DNA of 64,000 nucleotides from Candidatus Aegiribacteria sp. (GTDB taxonomy: Bacteria > Fermentibacterota > Fermentibacteria > Fermentibacterales > JCC-6), in NCBI GenBank assembly GCA_013138965.1, contig WTBT01000022.1, forward strand, positions 7,459-71,458, read 5' to 3'. This document shows positions 27,656-34,772 of the stretch, one piece after another. Positions within the stretch are counted from its first letter, which is position 1, and every line of letters begins with the position of its first letter. Below the pieces are notes generated by a model that worked only from the letters and a program-made list of their open reading frames with translations, made no database searches and was not told the DNA's origin. The translations under genes and the position numbers were made by a program.

Positions 27656-29069
27656 GGAGAGGAACGAAGCGCTTCTGGCAACACCTTTGCCCCCGATGGA
27701 AACCGGGCTGGCCACGTATGCTCTGAGAGTGCTCGAAAGCACAATCGATTTCGTAGACTGGACGGTGGCCTGTACACCTGGAAGTGACCCTTCATCCCTT
27801 CCCGCGAGTGTAAGAACCGTGCCAATTGACCGTCTTGAGGAGGGCAATCTGCCCGTTGCCAGAATATTCCAGATCGGCAATTCACCGCATTGCTTCCCGG
27901 TGCTCCAGGCATTGTACAGATTTGGCGGAACCGCTCTCTTTCATGAGACGGTCATTCATCATATGCTAAGACACTGCTATCTGGCGAGTAACCGGATGCA
28001 GGACTACAGGAGGGAACTTGTATTCTGCTACGGGCCGGCTGCGGAAGCTGTGGAAAATGACCTTTCGGTCGGGAATATCCCTGCCGCTGAATACGACAGA
28101 AAGCTTAAGCGCTACCCTCTGCTGGGAAGAGCCCTGCATGCGTCGCATTCCGCCGTATGTCTTAATTCATACGCGGCTTCCAAGGTGAGGATGTCTTATC
28201 CGGAAGGCAGAGTTCTGGCCATCGGCCATCCACTCAGCCCACTTCCTGAGCTGGAAATACACTCGAAACCCTTTCCCCTCTGTTTCGGAATGCTGGGAAC
28301 CAATCATCCCGGCAGGAATCTTGAGAGCCTTATTGAGGCTGTCGAGCTTCTGAGGAATGATTTTCCGGACGCGGGTCTTGTTCTGATAGGCGCAGGATAT
28401 CCCGATGAACTGCCGGAATGGATAAGGAGAACGGGAAGGCTTAACGAGAGGGAATATCAGGGCTGGATAAGAACGCTGGATTACGTGTTTGACCTGAGGC
28501 ATCCGACATGCGGTGAAACATCCGGCAGCCTTCTTGAAGGGATGAGGGCCGGTATACCATCCATCGTAACAGCAACCGGATCGTTCAATAACCTCCCATC
28601 CGATGCGGTGATAAGGGTTCCTCCTGAGAGCATTGTTCAGGGTGTCCGTGAAGCGGTATTCATGCTGGAGAGGAGACCCGATCTGAGGAATACCCTCTCG
28701 AACAAGGGAGCTTCCTACGCAGGGGATACAGGTTCTGAAGAAAGGCTTTTAAGTGACTGGAAAAGAGTTCTTCGCCTTGCGCGAAAACCTCCTGTGGATG
28801 TGGATAACCGTATTTCTATTTCTCCGGCCTGGAACGAACCCCCCGAGGGTTTCACGAGGGATCTGAACACTTTGCCGGTAACATGGGTATTCTCCGGAAC
28901 GGCAGAGCTTGAAGGCCCGGAATTCTCCTCGGGAGCGCTGGTAACGGTATGGGGAGAAGGTACCCTCGGCCGTATCGAGCTTGAGAGTGAGCCAGCCGTT
29001 ATAAACCATGATGGCAGAACACTGTGTTTCAGCGGTAATGGATATGTCTCGAATGTTATCTGGAAATAA
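27648..29069 (+). CDS. glycosyltransferase family 4-like protein (divergent)
   Basis: 'ETSGSLLEGMRAGIPSIVTATGSFNNLPSDAVIRV' is a GT4 C-domain motif. The ATG at 27648 follows a GGAGGGGAG Shine-Dalgarno. Confidence 0.6.
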   Translation: MSEERNEALLATPLPPMETGLATYALRVLESTIDFVDWTVACTPGSDPSSLPASVRTVPIDRLEEGNLPVARIFQIGNSPHCFPVLQALYRFGGTALFHETVIHHMLRHCYLASNRMQDYRRELVFCYGPAAEAVENDLSVGNIPAAEYDRKLKRYPLLGRALHASHSAVCLNSYAASKVRMSYPEGRVLAIGHPLSPLPELEIHSKPFPLCFGMLGTNHPGRNLESLIEAVELLRNDFPDAGLVLIGAGYPDELPEWIRRTGRLNEREYQGWIRTLDYVFDLRHPTCGETSGSLLEGMRAGIPSIVTATGSFNNLPSDAVIRVPPESIVQGVREAVFMLERRPDLRNTLSNKGASYAGDTGSEERLLSDWKRVLRLARKPPVDVDNRISISPAWNEPPEGFTRDLNTLPVTWVFSGTAELEGPEFSSGALVTVWGEGTLGRIELESEPAVINHDGRTLCFSGNGYVSNVIWK

Positions 29070-30648
29070 AGACTGCCACGGTCTTCGAAGAACTCTGTTT
29101 CCGCTTCTTCTTATTGCCGCTGTTCCGGCGCTCCTTCTTCCTTACATGCTGGTTCTCCTGTCCGATACCCCTGGAATAATCGGAATTCCTCACAGGGAAT
29201 CCGCGATTACGGAAGATTCCGATGTATATGAACAGGCATGGCATTTCTGGTGGGTTTCCAGCGCCCTTCAGAACGGTCAGGACCCCCGTTTCTGTCCCCT
29301 TATCTATTCACCGGAAGGAGTGTCGCTTGTATACGACCATATAGGGTGGCATGACACTCTTATTTTCGCGATTATCGGGATTGGAAAAGAGCATCCCGCC
29401 CTCTCTCATACACTATCGCTGCTGCTTGGCACAATGCTTACCGCGATTTTCGGATGGCTTCTCGCGAGATCGTGGGGAGCGGACAGATACGGAGCTCTCT
29501 TCACAGCTCTCGCGCTGGCATGGCTCCCTTCCAGAACAGCGCATTTGCTTCAGCACTATCAGTTAGCGAACTGCTGGACACTTCCGGCTTCGCTGTGGCT
29601 CTGCAGAGAGTATCTGAGAAAAGGAAAACTCAAAACCCTTGCTGCTTTCGCGGCAATTGTTATGCTGGCAGCTGTTCAGAGCCCGTTTATCGCCATATTC
29701 GCGGTACTCGGTCTCCCTGCAACATGTTTCATAATAGGTGGGAACTGGAAGAGAACCGCAATTCTTGCGGGAGGCGCCGGCCTGGCGGCCGCGGTGGTTG
29801 GAATTCTCATCCTTACAGCTCCCGGGCATATCACTTCGCCTTCAACACATTGGAGGGAAGCGATATACTGGGCAGCCGAACCCCAGTCATTCATCCTGCC
29901 TTCCCCGTTTGGCCCCGCAGGCTACTTATTCGGGATTCCCGCGAGATTCTCCTGGATGTCGAACACTGCGGAGGGTGTTGTTTCGCCCGGCCTTACTGTT
30001 CTGGCAGCTTTTGTTATTCTTATCTGGAGAAGAAGAAAATGGAGATTGCCGGTTGTCATTCTGGGCCTTGGGCTGCTTGCCCTGGGGCCTGAACTGCGGA
30101 TTCTCGGTCGCCCTCTGGGAATACCTCTGCCATTCAGGATTCTGCAGCTGTTTCCTGTACTGGATGGAATAAGAACCCCGTCCAGGTTTGCCATACTCGC
30201 CGGGCTGTTCACCGCTGTCGGGGCTGGAATGGGGATAACTCTTGTGAAGCGAAGATGGAAACTGCTGTTTCTTTCGCTTCTCATGTTCGAACTATGGATT
30301 CCTGTTTTTAGCGTGCTGTCCACCAGGATCCCATCGGCCTGCATGAGCATACCCGCGGGCAGTACCGTTCTGGAGGTTCCTGTCGATAACAATGTTAGAA
30401 GGTATGCCTGGTTCCAAACAGGAAATTCCTGCTCCCGCAGGTACGCTTTTCTGGCAAGGCTGCCCGAAACAGGCAACGAAGATTATCTTCTGCAGGAATC
30501 ATTGGAGAGGGGAGATGTGGTAGTTTATCATAGATGGCTCTTTGATGAGGAGGATAGAAACCGTTACGATACTCTCTATGCGGAACTATTCCCCGAAGGC
30601 TCAAACGCAGATTCAGTCTGGATACTCATGAACGGTGGTTCGCAATAG
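29008..30648 (+). CDS. polytopic integral membrane protein (about 12 TM), possible GT-C-type glycosyltransferase or polymerase
   Basis: Hydropathy shows many TM helices. It sits within the glycosyltransferase cluster. Alternative starts at 29038 or 29053. Confidence 0.5.
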   Translation: MMAEHCVSAVMDMSRMLSGNKDCHGLRRTLFPLLLIAAVPALLLPYMLVLLSDTPGIIGIPHRESAITEDSDVYEQAWHFWWVSSALQNGQDPRFCPLIYSPEGVSLVYDHIGWHDTLIFAIIGIGKEHPALSHTLSLLLGTMLTAIFGWLLARSWGADRYGALFTALALAWLPSRTAHLLQHYQLANCWTLPASLWLCREYLRKGKLKTLAAFAAIVMLAAVQSPFIAIFAVLGLPATCFIIGGNWKRTAILAGGAGLAAAVVGILILTAPGHITSPSTHWREAIYWAAEPQSFILPSPFGPAGYLFGIPARFSWMSNTAEGVVSPGLTVLAAFVILIWRRRKWRLPVVILGLGLLALGPELRILGRPLGIPLPFRILQLFPVLDGIRTPSRFAILAGLFTAVGAGMGITLVKRRWKLLFLSLLMFELWIPVFSVLSTRIPSACMSIPAGSTVLEVPVDNNVRRYAWFQTGNSCSRRYAFLARLPETGNEDYLLQESLERGDVVVYHRWLFDEEDRNRYDTLYAELFPEGSNADSVWILMNGGSQ

Positions 30649-30653
30649 GAGAT

Positions 30654-31769
30654 ATTCGTGTCCTTTTCGATCTCAGCATAGTTCCCCATGCGCTCGGTGG
30701 AGTAGCCCGGTACCTTCTATCAGTTGCGGGAGCCATTTCAGAAGTCGCCGGGCAGTTCGGAATCGAATTTATCCCCCTGGACGTTCCTGCGGCACATCCC
30801 GGTGTTCCCGGACCTGAAATGGTCGATCTTGTCCTTGAAACTCCTTTTTATCTTAAAATCCCTTTTTTCAGAAGAATTCCCATTCGAAAACGATGGGAAG
30901 AGAGATCACGGGCCGAAAGGCTCCGCGCATATGCCGGAGGAAGATCGGTATTTCACCACAGTGGCGTGCAGACTGAGTATCCCGCCGGAAGCGTATCCGT
31001 AGTAACTGTATACGATCTATCAGCTCTTGAAAATCCCCAATGGCATACGAAGGAAACGGTTTTATTTGCCGAAAGGGAAGCCCGGCTTATAGAGGGTGGT
31101 TCCTCGGTTATGGCAATATCGGAATGGACCAGGCAGCGGGTTATTGATTATTTTGACCTGCCGCAGGAGAGGGTATTCTGCGCTGGAGGAGCTGCGGACA
31201 GTATTTTTTCACCGGGGTCGCCCTCCTCAGGAGTAATGGAAAAGCTGGACCTTGAACCCGGAAGATATTTCCTTCATGTGGGCAACTTCGTTCCAAGAAA
31301 GAACATTCCATTTCTCCTGGATGTGTACGGAATATCCAGAGATAAGGGCGTTAAAATCCCTCTTGTTTTGGTTGGAGCGGGTGGATGGGGGGATGTGGCG
31401 GTTGATGAGGGACCGGGAGTACGGGTACTGAGGAACCTTTCCAACAGAACTGTAGTTGAGTTGTACCGCGGAGCCAGAGCGCTTCTTTGCCCCAGCAGTT
31501 TCGAGGGACTCGGCCTTCCCGTGCTTGAGGCATTCGCATGCGGCACTCCGGTTATTTCAAGCAGCGCCGCCGCTCTTTCGGATACGGTAGGGAATGACGG
31601 GGTTCAACTTGATCCCGGCGATCATGAAGGCTGGGTCAGGGAAATTACAGCGCTTGAGGAACCGGAAAGGGTAGATGATCTTCGGAGAATGTCCTCCTCA
31701 GCCGTGAGGAAGGACTGGCAGGATATAGCGAGAGGCATCTGCGGATTCTACAGGAGGATATCGGAATAA
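30654..31769 (+). CDS. glycosyltransferase family 4 (GT4-A); conserved N-terminus upstream of the first ATG
   Basis: 'GLGLPVLEAFACGTPVISSSAAALSDTVGNDGVQLDP' is a GT4 motif. The frame is open from 30649 and encodes canonical 'IRVLFDLSIVPHALGGVARYLL', but the first ATG is at 30819. A candidate ATT at 30654 follows an AGGAG at 30647-30651. Confidence 0.7.
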   Translation: MRVLFDLSIVPHALGGVARYLLSVAGAISEVAGQFGIEFIPLDVPAAHPGVPGPEMVDLVLETPFYLKIPFFRRIPIRKRWEERSRAERLRAYAGGRSVFHHSGVQTEYPAGSVSVVTVYDLSALENPQWHTKETVLFAEREARLIEGGSSVMAISEWTRQRVIDYFDLPQERVFCAGGAADSIFSPGSPSSGVMEKLDLEPGRYFLHVGNFVPRKNIPFLLDVYGISRDKGVKIPLVLVGAGGWGDVAVDEGPGVRVLRNLSNRTVVELYRGARALLCPSSFEGLGLPVLEAFACGTPVISSSAAALSDTVGNDGVQLDPGDHEGWVREITALEEPERVDDLRRMSSSAVRKDWQDIARGICGFYRRISE

Positions 31770-31847
31770 TGAAGATACTGCATCCACAGATCCTGGCCCT
31801 ATCATGGAGGCGCGGAACGTTACGTTCTGGAACATGCACTGTGGCGG
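31731..31847 (+). repeat. direct repeat copy 1 (GT4-A 3' end / GT4-B 5' start junction)
   Basis: agaggcatctgcggattctacaggaggatatcggaataatgaagatactgcatc...ctggaacatgc is near-identical to 33490-33601 apart from a 5-bp indel (tggtc). Confidence 0.75.
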
Positions 31848-31879
31848 TTGGGAAACCTGAAACAGGATTCTGTTGAATC
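31769..31879 (+). pseudogene. frameshifted 5' remnant of the downstream GT4-B gene
   Basis: ATG AAG ATA CTG CAT... copies the start of the gene at 33528 but lacks 'tggtc', shifts frame and terminates after 36 codons. Confidence 0.55.
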
Positions 31880-31965
31880 GATCATCCTTATCAGTGGATT
31901 GAACCTTGATGGTGGCATTGATCGCAGGAAAGTCTATGAGTATTGCTATTCCTGGTGAGATTATA

Positions 31966-32430
31966 TCATATTCTTCTGCGTAGTTTGTGTTTAAATATAT
32001 TCATAATTCTTTCTGTTTCAGTTTTCATTCTCGATACTCCAAGAAGTCCACCTGAGAAACCTGTCATGCCGCTTGAAAATACCAGCGTAGTATTCTGTGC
32101 ATTTGAGTAGATATTAATATTGAATTTATAGCGTTTCGCAAAACCACCCAACAGGAACCGACATAGAGAACTACCTGTTGCGTAGACACCATTGACTGGT
32201 GTACCACTATCGAGTTGATACCCTTCTTCAAAGAAGATATTAGCAACATTTCGAGCAGTTTCGTCAATAGATACACTGATTATTGTAACTTTAAAACCTG
32301 ACCCCAGATTTACGTAGGAGATAAACTTATTCGATGTCTGATTATGCTTTTCCGATAAAGCTTTTCCACAGAATGTGCAAAATGCCGTAGTATTCTCTGG
32401 AAGCTTTTGACCACATCTGGAACAATACAT
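31966..32430 (-). CDS. zinc-ribbon domain protein (N-terminal CxxC...CxxC) with uncharacterised soluble C-terminal domain
   Basis: 'MYCSRCGQKLPENTTAFCTFCGKAL'. Opposite strand to all neighbours, AT-rich context. ORF 31966..32451 with ATG at 32430. Confidence 0.5.
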   Translation of the reverse strand: MYCSRCGQKLPENTTAFCTFCGKALSEKHNQTSNKFISYVNLGSGFKVTIISVSIDETARNVANIFFEEGYQLDSGTPVNGVYATGSSLCRFLLGGFAKRYKFNINIYSNAQNTTLVFSSGMTGFSGGLLGVSRMKTETERIMNIFKHKLRRRI

Positions 32431-32566
32431 TGCAACCTCCTGGAAAACCATACTGTACCATATCGGTTATTAATCTCATGTGTATTCAGTAGATCTGTAT
32501 ATTTTATATACTTCTATACTCAAATATTACGCTATTTGAATAGTGGCATCCATCCACAACTTTTAG

Positions 32567-32959
32567 TTATAACTCGGCCATGAGTGGCAGGAAAAATAAG
32601 AAGAAAAAGACCAAATCAATCACACCCAGTACAATAGCTGCTGTTCCCATTCCTTCTCCGGTATAAAATTCCGGTCGTTCTTTTACTTTCTTTTTCGCGC
32701 CGTTACCCAATATGATAGCGATTATCCCAAAAATGATACCAAAGAAAAATATGCCGATCAAGCCGCATACAAGTCCTGCTACTGCTCCCGGGGCGTTCTT
32801 TCTGATAATTTGAACTCCTTGTGCATAAGGTATGGATGAAGCCGTATTATATACCTGAGTTCCTCCAGATGTATCTTTTATACTGTCTCCACAGTACGGA
32901 CAGAAGGCTTCAACTTTATTTTCATCAAGCTGTTTTCCGCATTTTGAACAGAACATCAT
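32567..32959 (-). CDS. zinc-ribbon plus two-TM (DUF4190-like) membrane protein
   Basis: 'MFCSKCGKQLDENKVEAFCPYCGDSI', then 'APGAVAGLVCGLIGIFFFGIIFGIIAIILGNGAKKK' and a second TM helix. Paralogous N-terminus to the adjacent gene. Confidence 0.55.
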   Translation of the reverse strand: MMFCSKCGKQLDENKVEAFCPYCGDSIKDTSGGTQVYNTASSIPYAQGVQIIRKNAPGAVAGLVCGLIGIFFFGIIFGIIAIILGNGAKKKVKERPEFYTGEGMGTAAIVLGVIDLVFFFLFFLPLMAEL

Positions 32960-33412
32960 TACCTCCTATTTGTGAATGCAGCCGATAATTGAAAATTGAT
33001 TTCCAGAATATTGGATTTTCGAGCAAGATAACTGCTCAGAAAAACCTCAACATCTTTTTTCCAGCCGTAATTTATTTAAAGTAATAATACCGATGCCAGC
33101 ACTTCCCTGTCAATGATATGAAGAGCTGATTAACGATCAGAATAGTATTCAAGTATTGAAGCATCTGAAGAAAGCTAACCCGTATTCCCCGCACAACTGC
33201 AAAGCTTAAATAATAGACTCCGGTTATCCGGGAATTGAAGCCTGAGTATCTTTGAAATATTGATTTATGGAGATTATGATTACATCAACAACAATAATAC
33301 ATAATCTGGTTCTTGTGACAAACAATGAGAAACATTTCCGAAGAGAAGATGGTTCGAAGAAGGAACGAAGCCCGGCTGAGATGTGCTACCTGGTTGCATG
33401 ATTTGAAGAAAG

Positions 33413-33527
33413 AACTATGGTTGAGTTGTACCGTGGTGACAGGGCGCTTCTCTGCCCCGGCAGGGAGGAAGGAGTAGCGTAATATAGAAAGAGGCATCTG
33501 CGGATTCTACAGGAGGATATCGGAATA
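33413..33527 (+). pseudogene. decayed 3' remnant of GT4-A (internal deletion) ahead of intact GT4-B
   Basis: aactatggttgagttgtaccgtggtgacagggcgcttctctgccccggcag matches 31447-31498. It then jumps to agaggcatctgcggattctacaggaggatatcggaataATG. Confidence 0.5.
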
Positions 33528-33601
33528 ATGAAGATACTGCATCTGGTCCACAGATCCTGGCCCTATCATGGAGGCGCGGAACGTTACGTTCTGGAACATG
33601 C
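33490..33601 (+). repeat. direct repeat copy 2
   Basis: See copy 1 at 31731-31847. Confidence 0.75.
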
Positions 33602-34772
33602 CATCGCAGGGAATAGATGGGGGCACGAGTCGGTCATCTGCACAACCGACGCATGGGATATGTCATTGTTCGTTTCCAGGTCAGGAACCCGCATATTGAA
33701 GCGCGATGATCTGATTGACGGTGTAAGAATAAAACGTTTCCCCGTTTTCCACCCTCCGTTTCAGAATTTATTCCGAGCTGTACTTAGACGGTTAAGTGAA
33801 TGCGGCCCCGACAGGTACTATTATCCCAATCCTTTCATTCCCTCGCTGCACCGCTGGCTTTCAGCGGAGAGGGGATTCGACCTGGTTCATGCCAACGCGA
33901 TGCCATTCATGCTTTACGAAGGATGGCGCTATAGCAGAGATCATGGAAAAGGCCTTGTTTCAGTACCACACGCAAACGTTGGCGAGAAATACAGAAGAGT
34001 AAAGGCGCTGCGCTACTTCAGCGGCTGTCAGAAGAAGATTCTGCGGAACAGCACTTTTGTCGTAGCGCAGAGCAGATTTGAGAAAGAGCTTTACTCGGGT
34101 ATGGGAATCCCGGAGGAAAGGGTTCACATCTCGGGCAGCGGGATAGATCCTGCCGAATTCGCCGGTAGCAGCCGGGAAAGAGGATTGGAACGGCTTGGAG
34201 TGACTGGACCGGTTATTCTATGTCTGACAGCGCACTCACTGGATAGAGGAACGGCGAATATCATTCAGGCGTGCAGGATCCTTCTGAAAAAGGAACGTGA
34301 TTTTACCCTGGTCCTTGCCGGTCCCGTTCTTCCGGATGTGGAAGAATACATAAATTCCGAAAAGAAACTTGCGGAGGAGTTCGGTGACAGGCTGGTATTA
34401 ACGGGATATGTAAGCAGGGAAGAGAGAATTGATTTGCTTTCGGCAGCGGATATCGTCCTTCTTCCTTCAAGGCTGGACTGCTTTGGAATCGTGGTACTGG
34501 AAGCCTGGATATCCGGAAAACCGGTTATCGGGTGCTGGTCAGGAGCAATGCCTGATATCATCAGCGACGGCAACAACGGATTCCTCGTGTCATGGGGTGA
34601 TACCACTTCGCTTATGAACAGGATAGAGATACTGCTGGACAACGAAGAGCTTGGACGAGCCATGGGCTCAAGGGGCCGGAAGGATGTGCTTGAGAGATGG
34701 ACCTGGGAGAAGGTTACTGACAGGTTCTACCGGCGTCTTTCACAATGCTGCCCGGAATCAAGCAGCCTATGA
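33528..34772 (+). CDS. glycosyltransferase family 4 (GT4-B)
   Basis: 'MKILHLVHRSWPYHGGAERYVLEHA' N-terminus and 'LLPSRLDCFGIVVLEAWISGKPVIGCWSGAMPDIISDGNNGFLV' C-domain. Confidence 0.85.
   Translation: MKILHLVHRSWPYHGGAERYVLEHAIAGNRWGHESVICTTDAWDMSLFVSRSGTRILKRDDLIDGVRIKRFPVFHPPFQNLFRAVLRRLSECGPDRYYYPNPFIPSLHRWLSAERGFDLVHANAMPFMLYEGWRYSRDHGKGLVSVPHANVGEKYRRVKALRYFSGCQKKILRNSTFVVAQSRFEKELYSGMGIPEERVHISGSGIDPAEFAGSSRERGLERLGVTGPVILCLTAHSLDRGTANIIQACRILLKKERDFTLVLAGPVLPDVEEYINSEKKLAEEFGDRLVLTGYVSREERIDLLSAADIVLLPSRLDCFGIVVLEAWISGKPVIGCWSGAMPDIISDGNNGFLVSWGDTTSLMNRIEILLDNEELGRAMGSRGRKDVLERWTWEKVTDRFYRRLSQCCPESSSL

Follow-up and report, generated by a model that had tools for sequence, protein, structure and literature searches.

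The stretch analysed here, 64,000 nt of a Candidatus Aegiribacteria sp. genome (assembly GCA_013138965.1, contig WTBT01000022.1; referred to below as the window and numbered from its first position), contains a plus-strand array of glycan-synthesis genes in which two glycosyltransferase genes, GT4-A (30819-31769) and GT4-B (33528-34772, NOQ21850.1), are held apart by inserted DNA. The insert, termed the payload, occupies positions 31838-33410 (1573 bp) and carries two small genes on the minus strand, ZR161 and ZR130, while the junction between GT4-A and GT4-B is present on both sides of it. Aegiribacteria are placed in the Fermentibacteria lineage, within the Fibrobacteres-Chlorobi-Bacteroidetes (FCB) superphylum (PMC4846661).

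Both glycosyltransferase genes are intact and full length relative to their orthologues. GT4-A matches the Pfam family Glycos_transf_1 (PF00534; E=2e-21, 76.8 bits against a gathering cutoff of 26.4), has a full-length tblastn match to its orthologues at 76-84%, and keeps its native C-terminus together with the TAATG stop/start overlap that couples it to GT4-B. GT4-B matches both Glyco_transf_4 (PF13439, 68.3 bits) and Glycos_transf_1 (PF00534, 90.5 bits), and its residues 1-414 align to orthologues.

Two copies of one gene junction

The core of the repeat, 31731-31837 on the left (J-left, 107 nt) and 33490-33601 on the right (J-right, 112 nt), was delimited by repeat detection and by blastn (E=1e-47) and is identical at 107/107 aligned positions. 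The sole difference is the absence of 5 bp, TGGTC, from the left copy at a site flanked by a 2-nt TC repeat, so that the identity is divided into exact blocks of 54 and 55 nt, which overlap by 2 nt at the deletion. TGGTC or a one-base variant of it is present in 7/7 close orthologues aligned across the site, none of which has the deletion. GT4-A contributes its final 38 nt to J-right and GT4-B its first 74 nt, and an AGGAGG ribosome-binding site and the TAATG overlap are kept in both copies. A second, outlying match pairs 31446-31498 with 33411-33463 (53 nt, 85%, blastn E=3e-5). In a gapped alignment the right-copy match carries on in register from there, 33464-33489 corresponding to 31705-31730, with approximately 206 bp missing inside the right copy between the 9-nt near-repeats CCCCAGCAG and CCTCAGCCG. 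The full duplicated target is 31446-31837 (392 nt, the 3′ 324 nt of GT4-A and the first 69 nt of GT4-B), and the right copy, 33411-33601, is a 191-nt derivative of it. The initial annotation of this DNA had described the junction as present twice and nearly identical apart from a 5-bp indel, and had noticed that the right GT4-A fragment also matches at 31447-31498; both observations are real, although the left copy had been extended to 31847, 10 nt beyond the point at which the homology stops.

The two copies lead into different sequences. To the left of the payload, intact GT4-A is followed by a frameshifted GT4-B stub (31769-31876, plus strand) comprising ATG, 34 codons and TGA; the 5-bp deletion falls after codon 5, and homology to GT4-B ends at 31837. 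The native GT4-B frame of this stub stays open for 40 further codons into the payload, to 31958, and before the deletion the stub would have encoded a 63-aa chimeric peptide, which the deletion cuts to 35 codons. To the right, a decayed 3′ fragment of GT4-A (33411-33489, plus strand) leads without a break into intact GT4-B.

The repeat contains sequence of two ages. Mismatches between the copies number 16/79 in 33411-33489, including a Trp-to-stop change, and 0/107 in 33490-33601 (Fisher p=4e-7), on which ground a single duplication undergoing neutral decay at a uniform rate was rejected as the cause. Of the 16 differences, nine occur in the right fragment only, at invariant or nearly invariant sites of 12 orthologues, and the private changes include first and second codon positions as well as the new stop codon; judged from the alignment, they are the marks of pseudogene decay. 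Since the fragment is identical at 63/79 positions to its own GT4-A and at 63/79 to that of the nearest other species, it is old. Though no more functional than the fragment, the left GT4-B stub has no substitutions at all. Conservation alone was likewise rejected as the cause of core identity, because the nearest orthologue differs from it at no fewer than 8 positions (8/107 for the closest). The boundary of identity at 33489/33490 is in register and lies beside a cluster of mismatches that would block extension of a heteroduplex, a pattern that points to a recent tract of gene conversion or homologous recombination over the core. Of the duplicative insertion proposed in the initial annotation, the duplication is upheld; a single event is insufficient, since a part diverged by 20% adjoins 107 identical nucleotides and a later conversion or recombination tract is needed.

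Relatives and independent assembly

The ancestral state of the locus was investigated by comparison with related genomes. A scan of one genome per species recovered 20 related loci, and GT4-A was followed directly by GT4-B in 17/17 of those containing both genes. The same uninterrupted arrangement was found in 14 metagenome contigs and in three further contigs reached through a protein index; one of the metagenome contigs is the same contig as a locus of the genome set, and the total comes to about 30 non-redundant loci, across which GT4-B identity ranges from 52 to 88%. Neither the two small genes nor a second copy of the junction was found in any of these Aegiribacteria and Fermentibacteria loci. 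Because the uninterrupted order holds throughout these relatives, the insertion is derived and confined to the lineage of the window. Several of the contigs (L007, L008, L016/L034, L020, L031 and L035; loci are numbered L001 onward) begin or end within approximately 180 nt of the A/B junction; the enrichment is not convincing, and these ends could reflect strain-level variation there or chance.

Run SRR10375098 has also been assembled independently in Logan, and a 1712-bp contig of that assembly corresponds to window positions 31808-33519 at 100% identity. This contig spans both novel junctions, 31837/31838 and 33410/33411, and the entire decayed fragment. Its two ends each reach exactly 30 nt into an exact block, the 55-nt one on the left and the 54-nt one on the right. 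The Logan assembly was presumably built with k=31, which makes 30 nt equal to k-1. Contig ends 30 nt into each block are those of a k=31 graph with two contexts per block, so that all four junction contexts are present in the reads. Taken together, the comparative loci and the recovery of both novel junctions by a second assembler bear out the earlier proposal that DNA was inserted into an ancestrally adjoining GT4-A/GT4-B pair with duplication of their junction.

Contents of the payload and its surroundings

The payload has a GC content of 0.383 and resembles neither other parts of the window nor any glycosyltransferase locus of relatives. Its GC is the minimum for the window, in which 1.5-kb intervals have a mean of 0.484 and a standard deviation of 0.028, and GC at third codon positions is 0.32 and 0.37 in the two small genes vs 0.48-0.55 in their operon neighbours. 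These values agree with the initial impression that the DNA between the copies is visibly AT-richer. The second-lowest stretch of the window, 1201-2700 (0.402), lies mostly in the gene for a 575-aa FG-GAP-repeat protein (582-2309).

ZR161 (NOQ21848.1, 31966-32451, minus strand) encodes a Zn ribbon at the N-terminus and, at the C-terminus, a domain of approximately 110 aa; its likely start is Met8 at 32430, which gives a protein of 154 aa. ZR130 (NOQ21849.1, 32567-32959, minus strand) encodes an N-terminal Zn ribbon followed by a two-helix membrane domain, DUF4190 (PF13828, residues 59-121, 57.3 bits against a cutoff of 35, E=1.3e-15), and its homologues are 62-80% identical to it. For both genes the public gene calls use starts other than those of the open reading frame (ORF) list by which they are delimited here. 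The two Zn ribbons are paralogous and 42% identical. The C-terminal domain of ZR161 had no sequence match in Pfam, NCBIfam or PDB, while a full HMMER scan assembled a family of 341 representatives, mostly stand-alone proteins of about 120 aa, with a few fused to Zn ribbons, HEAT repeats or DUF4013. An AlphaFold2 model made with a 49-sequence alignment reached a pLDDT of 86, and a KA1-like alpha/beta fold is confidently predicted for this C-terminus; a run with three sequences (pLDDT 53) was discarded. Neither payload protein matched the PADLOC models of anti-phage defence at E<=0.1.

A pseudogene scrap occupies the right edge of the payload: positions 33270-33350 (plus strand) code for approximately the last 27 residues of a VapC/PIN toxin. 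Three libraries place it at the same C-terminal profile positions: NCBIfam VapC (E=4e-4, positions 95-121/130, far under the 140-bit cutoff), PHROG 13721 (positions 102-128/136) and PDB 3zvk VapC (residues 99-123/134). The rest of the gene is lost; a complete PIN domain was not found at 33270-33350, and the frames upstream are full of stops. That the scrap adjoins the decayed GT4-A fragment suggests an origin of the payload in a region with a former toxin-antitoxin module.

Signals for transcription were sought by consensus. A sigma-70-like match upstream of ZR130 (TTGACA-18-TATTAT, 11/12, 33084-33113, minus strand) is a consensus match only, and a second one (TTGAAA-17-TATGAT, 33252-33280, plus strand) points toward GT4-B and is a candidate replacement promoter. 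The scan as a whole is weak, with 7 sites vs 5.2 expected under a sigma-70 consensus that may not be the rule in this phylum. An intrinsic terminator was not found 3′ of ZR161, either by consensus scan or by RNA folding (z-score -0.3).

Relatives of the gene pair were collected from 5.8 billion proteins, which yielded three close homologues of ZR161 and five of ZR130, all from Aegiribacteria metagenome-assembled genomes (MAGs) or unlabelled metagenome contigs. In GCA_021108005.1 (locus L022) the pair is present in the same relative order, between the gene for a Por_Secre_tail protein and that for a UbiE-type methyltransferase, with GC of 0.37-0.43 vs 0.45-0.54 in the flanks and no repeats flanking it. 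The short contigs that carry other homologues have GC of 0.39-0.41. Nucleotide homology of these loci to the window is limited to 31949-32986, the edges of the payload being unmatched. In comparison with the pair of GCA_021108005.1, the ratio of nonsynonymous to synonymous divergence (dN/dS) is 0.45-0.49 at a dS of about 0.45; this and the intact state of the genes indicate that they are maintained. The divergence of the pair is comparable to that shown by the genes around it between genomes of this kind. Since it is equally AT-rich at a different locus, its low GC belongs to the module itself and is no proof of a distant donor. The claim that the inserted DNA is foreign can accordingly be kept as regards this locus, on the basis of its composition; a distant donor is not shown, the close homologues coming only from Aegiribacteria and unlabelled contigs. 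The alternative home locus of the pair is not in the window, where the proteins flanking the pair in L022 gave only a weak Por_Secre_tail domain match. Two of the contigs with ZR130 homologues (L027:1-700 and L028:1-480) share conserved non-coding DNA several hundred bases 5′ of the gene; neither the window payload nor L022 has this sequence, and no tRNA was found in it.

The two small genes had been described as the only minus-strand genes from 21.4 kb to the end of the window, and at a resolution of ORFs of at least 150 aa this holds: every such minus-strand ORF is enclosed by a longer one on the plus strand. Pfam gave no match for the four longest minus-strand ORFs (232-323 aa), whereas it matched five of six overlapping plus-strand ORFs that were scanned. 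Upstream of GT4-A, between it and a gene for a 473-aa glycosyltransferase, lies TM546 (29008-30648), which encodes a 546-aa multi-pass membrane protein. TM546 is present in the window, in L001, L002, L006 and L038 and in distant relatives. It is absent in several close relatives (L048:8793-10004, L049 and L050), in which GT4-A directly follows the 473-aa glycosyltransferase gene; its absence in L004, L005 and L032 was deduced from a missing or residual match. The glycosyltransferase locus is a mosaic, the closest relative varying from gene to gene.

The GT4-A frame continues 5′ of its first ATG (30819) for about 58 codons without a stop, back to approximately 30645 (AIGDIRVLFDLSIVPHALGG...), and this extension is strongly conserved. 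No ATG, GTG or TTG occurs in this upstream stretch in the window, L001, L002 or L006; the TAG stop of TM546 (30646-30648) overlaps an ATA codon, and an ATT lies at 30654. From the conservation of the frame, the true start of GT4-A is probably upstream of 30819 and the 316-aa ORF an under-call; the start may be non-canonical or re-initiated. Pfam did not detect an N-terminal domain in GT4-A even with this extension included.

Origin of the insertion

Signatures of known mobile elements were sought throughout the payload and its flanks. No transposase or integrase domain was found in any payload ORF with Pfam and further profile libraries, and repeat detection gave no terminal inverted repeats at the payload ends. 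No tRNA was found in the related loci that carry the ZR gene pair, and no Rfam family scored above its gathering score in window positions 31000-34500; a sub-threshold match to the L31 leader (E=0.08) was dismissed. Phage and plasmid collections gave no match to the payload, and a scan of viral contigs with the ZR130/DUF4190 alignment was also empty. The lack of mobility genes argues for recombination by the host, and the locus is most likely the product of a host-recombination insertion-duplication of an AT-rich module at the GT4-A/GT4-B junction, followed by decay and by gene conversion of the core.

By this route a 1.57-kb module, consisting of the two small minus-strand genes, their upstream region and the vapC scrap, would have entered the TAATG-coupled junction of a conserved glycan-synthesis array by host recombination, with neither transposase nor integrase taking part, and about 392 bp of target, the 3′ end of GT4-A and the 5′ start of GT4-B, would have been duplicated in the process. 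The entry may have been a single-crossover (Campbell-type) integration of a circularised fragment, or a tandem duplication or template switch in which DNA was captured at the joint. The redundant halves would then have decayed, the right GT4-A fragment gaining substitutions, a stop and the 206-bp deletion. The 107-112-nt core would later have been re-homogenised by a tract with its edge at 33489/33490, and the left stub would have lost its 5 bp after that. Because the junction was duplicated, GT4-A keeps its C-terminus and stop codon and GT4-B its ribosome-binding site and N-terminus, which is probably why the event survived in an overlapping pair. It seems robust that a TAATG-coupled pair could not take up a simple insertion without losing either the GT4-A end or the GT4-B start together with its ribosome-binding site.

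Tandem duplication or a template switch that traps DNA at the joint gives the same architecture as integration of a circle. A copy-type switch from the same genome is disfavoured: it predicts a second, identical copy of the payload, and the Logan contig is unbroken through both payload edges, so that the sample holds no second copy with other flanks. In Escherichia coli, single-crossover integration of circularised DNA gave duplications of 109-950 bp that bracketed the insert, and such events outnumbered true homology-facilitated illegitimate recombination (HFIR) (PMC3240628). The window resembles that system in that the insert is bracketed by a direct, in-register duplication (31446-31837 and 33411-33601), that the 112-392 bp duplicated fall within the range reported for E. 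coli (PMC3240628), that no recombinase of the element is needed and that both flanking genes are intact. It differs in that none of the collections searched here contained a circular donor with a GT4-A/B junction, that the copies are of two ages, which simple integration does not predict, and that the event is a natural one in an uncultured bacterium rather than a plasmid construct. The arrays of orphan 3′ fragments at type VI secretion system (T6SS)/Rhs loci likewise have new DNA beside a conserved gene end with a decaying, displaced 3′ fragment downstream, in a recombination-prone accessory locus (PMC5361080); here, unlike in those T6SS/Rhs arrays, the upstream gene was not replaced by a variant. 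HFIR typically deletes approximately an insert-sized piece of target and uses 3-10 bp of microhomology at one end (PMC3240628). A homology boundary in register is present here at 33489/33490, but recipient DNA was duplicated, with no net deletion. A transposon or insertion sequence would share the direct target repeats, the composition different from that of the host and the interrupted operon, but not the lack of a transposase and of terminal inverted repeats, and target duplications of insertion sequences measure 2-15 bp vs 112-392 bp here, in unequal copies (392 left, 191 right).

The main alternative, though an unlikely one, is that the payload first disrupted GT4-A at about 31445/31446 and that the gene was later repaired. 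The orphaned 3′ part of the inactivated GT4-A would have decayed, and an intact GT4-A allele of a close relative, together with the first 69-74 nt of GT4-B, would have been patched in by HFIR, through homologous recombination on the left and an illegitimate join on the right at 31837/31838. Such a history accounts for an old, decayed right fragment beside a young, undiverged left stub; the mosaic nature of the locus among relatives, in the presence or absence of TM546 and in the gene-by-gene change of nearest relative, suits it, and HFIR is documented in several bacteria (PMC3240628, PMC5361080). It requires, however, that the resident core stayed 107/107 identical to that of the donor despite approximately 20% divergence in its neighbour and 8/107 differences in the nearest orthologue, when several synonymous core differences would be expected. 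It also requires that HFIR, which normally deletes, should have duplicated (PMC3240628), and it invokes two rare events with a period without GT4-A function between them. It is improbable, again, that the structure is an artefact of assembly or of a mixed population, in which the true chromosome has an uninterrupted A-B pair and the payload with one repeat, from another strain or from a small circular pop-out, was threaded in through the 54- and 55-nt blocks. The ends of the Logan contig fit a graph of A-J-B plus a 1.76-kb loop equally well, and the exact ZR161 and ZR130 proteins were found only on the 91-kb contig of the source MAG (locus tags GQ565_) and on the 1712-bp Logan contig. Yet the copies are distinguishable by a 5-bp indel, 16 single-nucleotide differences and a 206-bp deletion, and the blocks they share, 54-55 nt, are shorter than a read. 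The payload-stub and payload-fragment junctions were recovered by an independent assembler, a 1.76-kb circle would have no replication gene, and a right-hand GT4-A pseudogene fragment makes sense only beside a displaced junction.

Site-specific integration of a small islet, with the cores as attL and attR and the element bringing its own copy of the target end, has very little probability. An integrated islet would fit with direct repeats whose core is identical while the arm on the side of the element has diverged, with a payload of distinct composition and with a toxin-antitoxin remnant at one edge. Against it stand the lack of an integrase or recombinase and of a tRNA or other known att target, the pair in another genome without flanking repeats, and the absence of the core sequence beside the pair in L022-L030. 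The element-borne stub, moreover, is 0/55 diverged and the fragment 20%, which is unexpected if both arms came from one element. An integrase-type island or prophage remnant is no closer a likeness, as no recombinase, tRNA or phage match was found and direct repeats of such size are unspecific. Scarcely credible, finally, is an ancestral two-copy arrangement that was cleanly lost by repeat recombination in all sampled relatives. Loss would be mechanistically easy, since recombination within the 54-nt block would regenerate a perfect A-B junction, but the two-copy state is absent from about 30 loci at 52-88% GT4-B identity, distant Fermentibacteria included; many independent, precise losses would be needed, and a single gain on the terminal branch is far more parsimonious.

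Insertion-duplication by host recombination has points of its own that weigh against it. A donor for 31838-31948 and 32987-33410 was not found, either by blastn and tblastx in the collected loci or in the phage and plasmid collections, and for that reason microhomology at the junctions and the route of entry are unreadable. Gene conversion is brought in ad hoc for the two-age pattern, and its tract must extend as far as the homology itself does. Genome and metagenome contigs, cluster members and the 5.8-billion-protein index yielded no conspecific genome, the closest GT4-B among them being 86-88% identical in amino acid sequence, so the event is neither datable nor shown to be polymorphic. The linkage of left-specific GT4-A to the 5-bp-deleted core and the payload depends on the assembler of the MAG.

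The insertion has left GT4-B and the tightly packed genes downstream of it behind 1.76 kb of DNA that is antisense to two genes, and a payload promoter, for which the plus-strand match at 33252-33280 is the candidate, may now drive their transcription. The identical blocks could also mediate excision: loss through the 54-nt block would restore the ancestral coupled junction, while loss through the 55-nt block would frameshift GT4-B by 5 bp. From this a much bolder scenario can be drawn, to which very little weight is given, in which a recombinase-less, AT-rich ZR module circulates among Aegiribacteria, perhaps as a membrane-acting addiction or defence pair, and its reversible insertion switches surface-glycan synthesis across the population. 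A role in addiction or defence might be considered for the pair in view of the company of the vapC scrap.

The recombination scar at this locus is real but of a fairly ordinary sort; it adds an instance to a known kind of rearrangement and does not represent a novel type of mobile element. It is instructive rather than surprising, and does not overturn existing understanding. It also serves as a caution that low GC is no proof of a distant donor, the same module being equally AT-rich at other sites in the phylum, and the analysis yielded as a by-product a family of small proteins with a predicted KA1-like fold, with approximately 340 representatives and no Pfam model. As a natural example, it illustrates how DNA can be slipped between translationally coupled, overlapping genes with damage to neither, by duplication of their junction, and how such a scar ages, its redundant halves decaying unequally and its core being homogenised. 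For Fermentibacterota, a little-studied and uncultured phylum, the insertion is evidence of structural plasticity in a glycan-synthesis locus.

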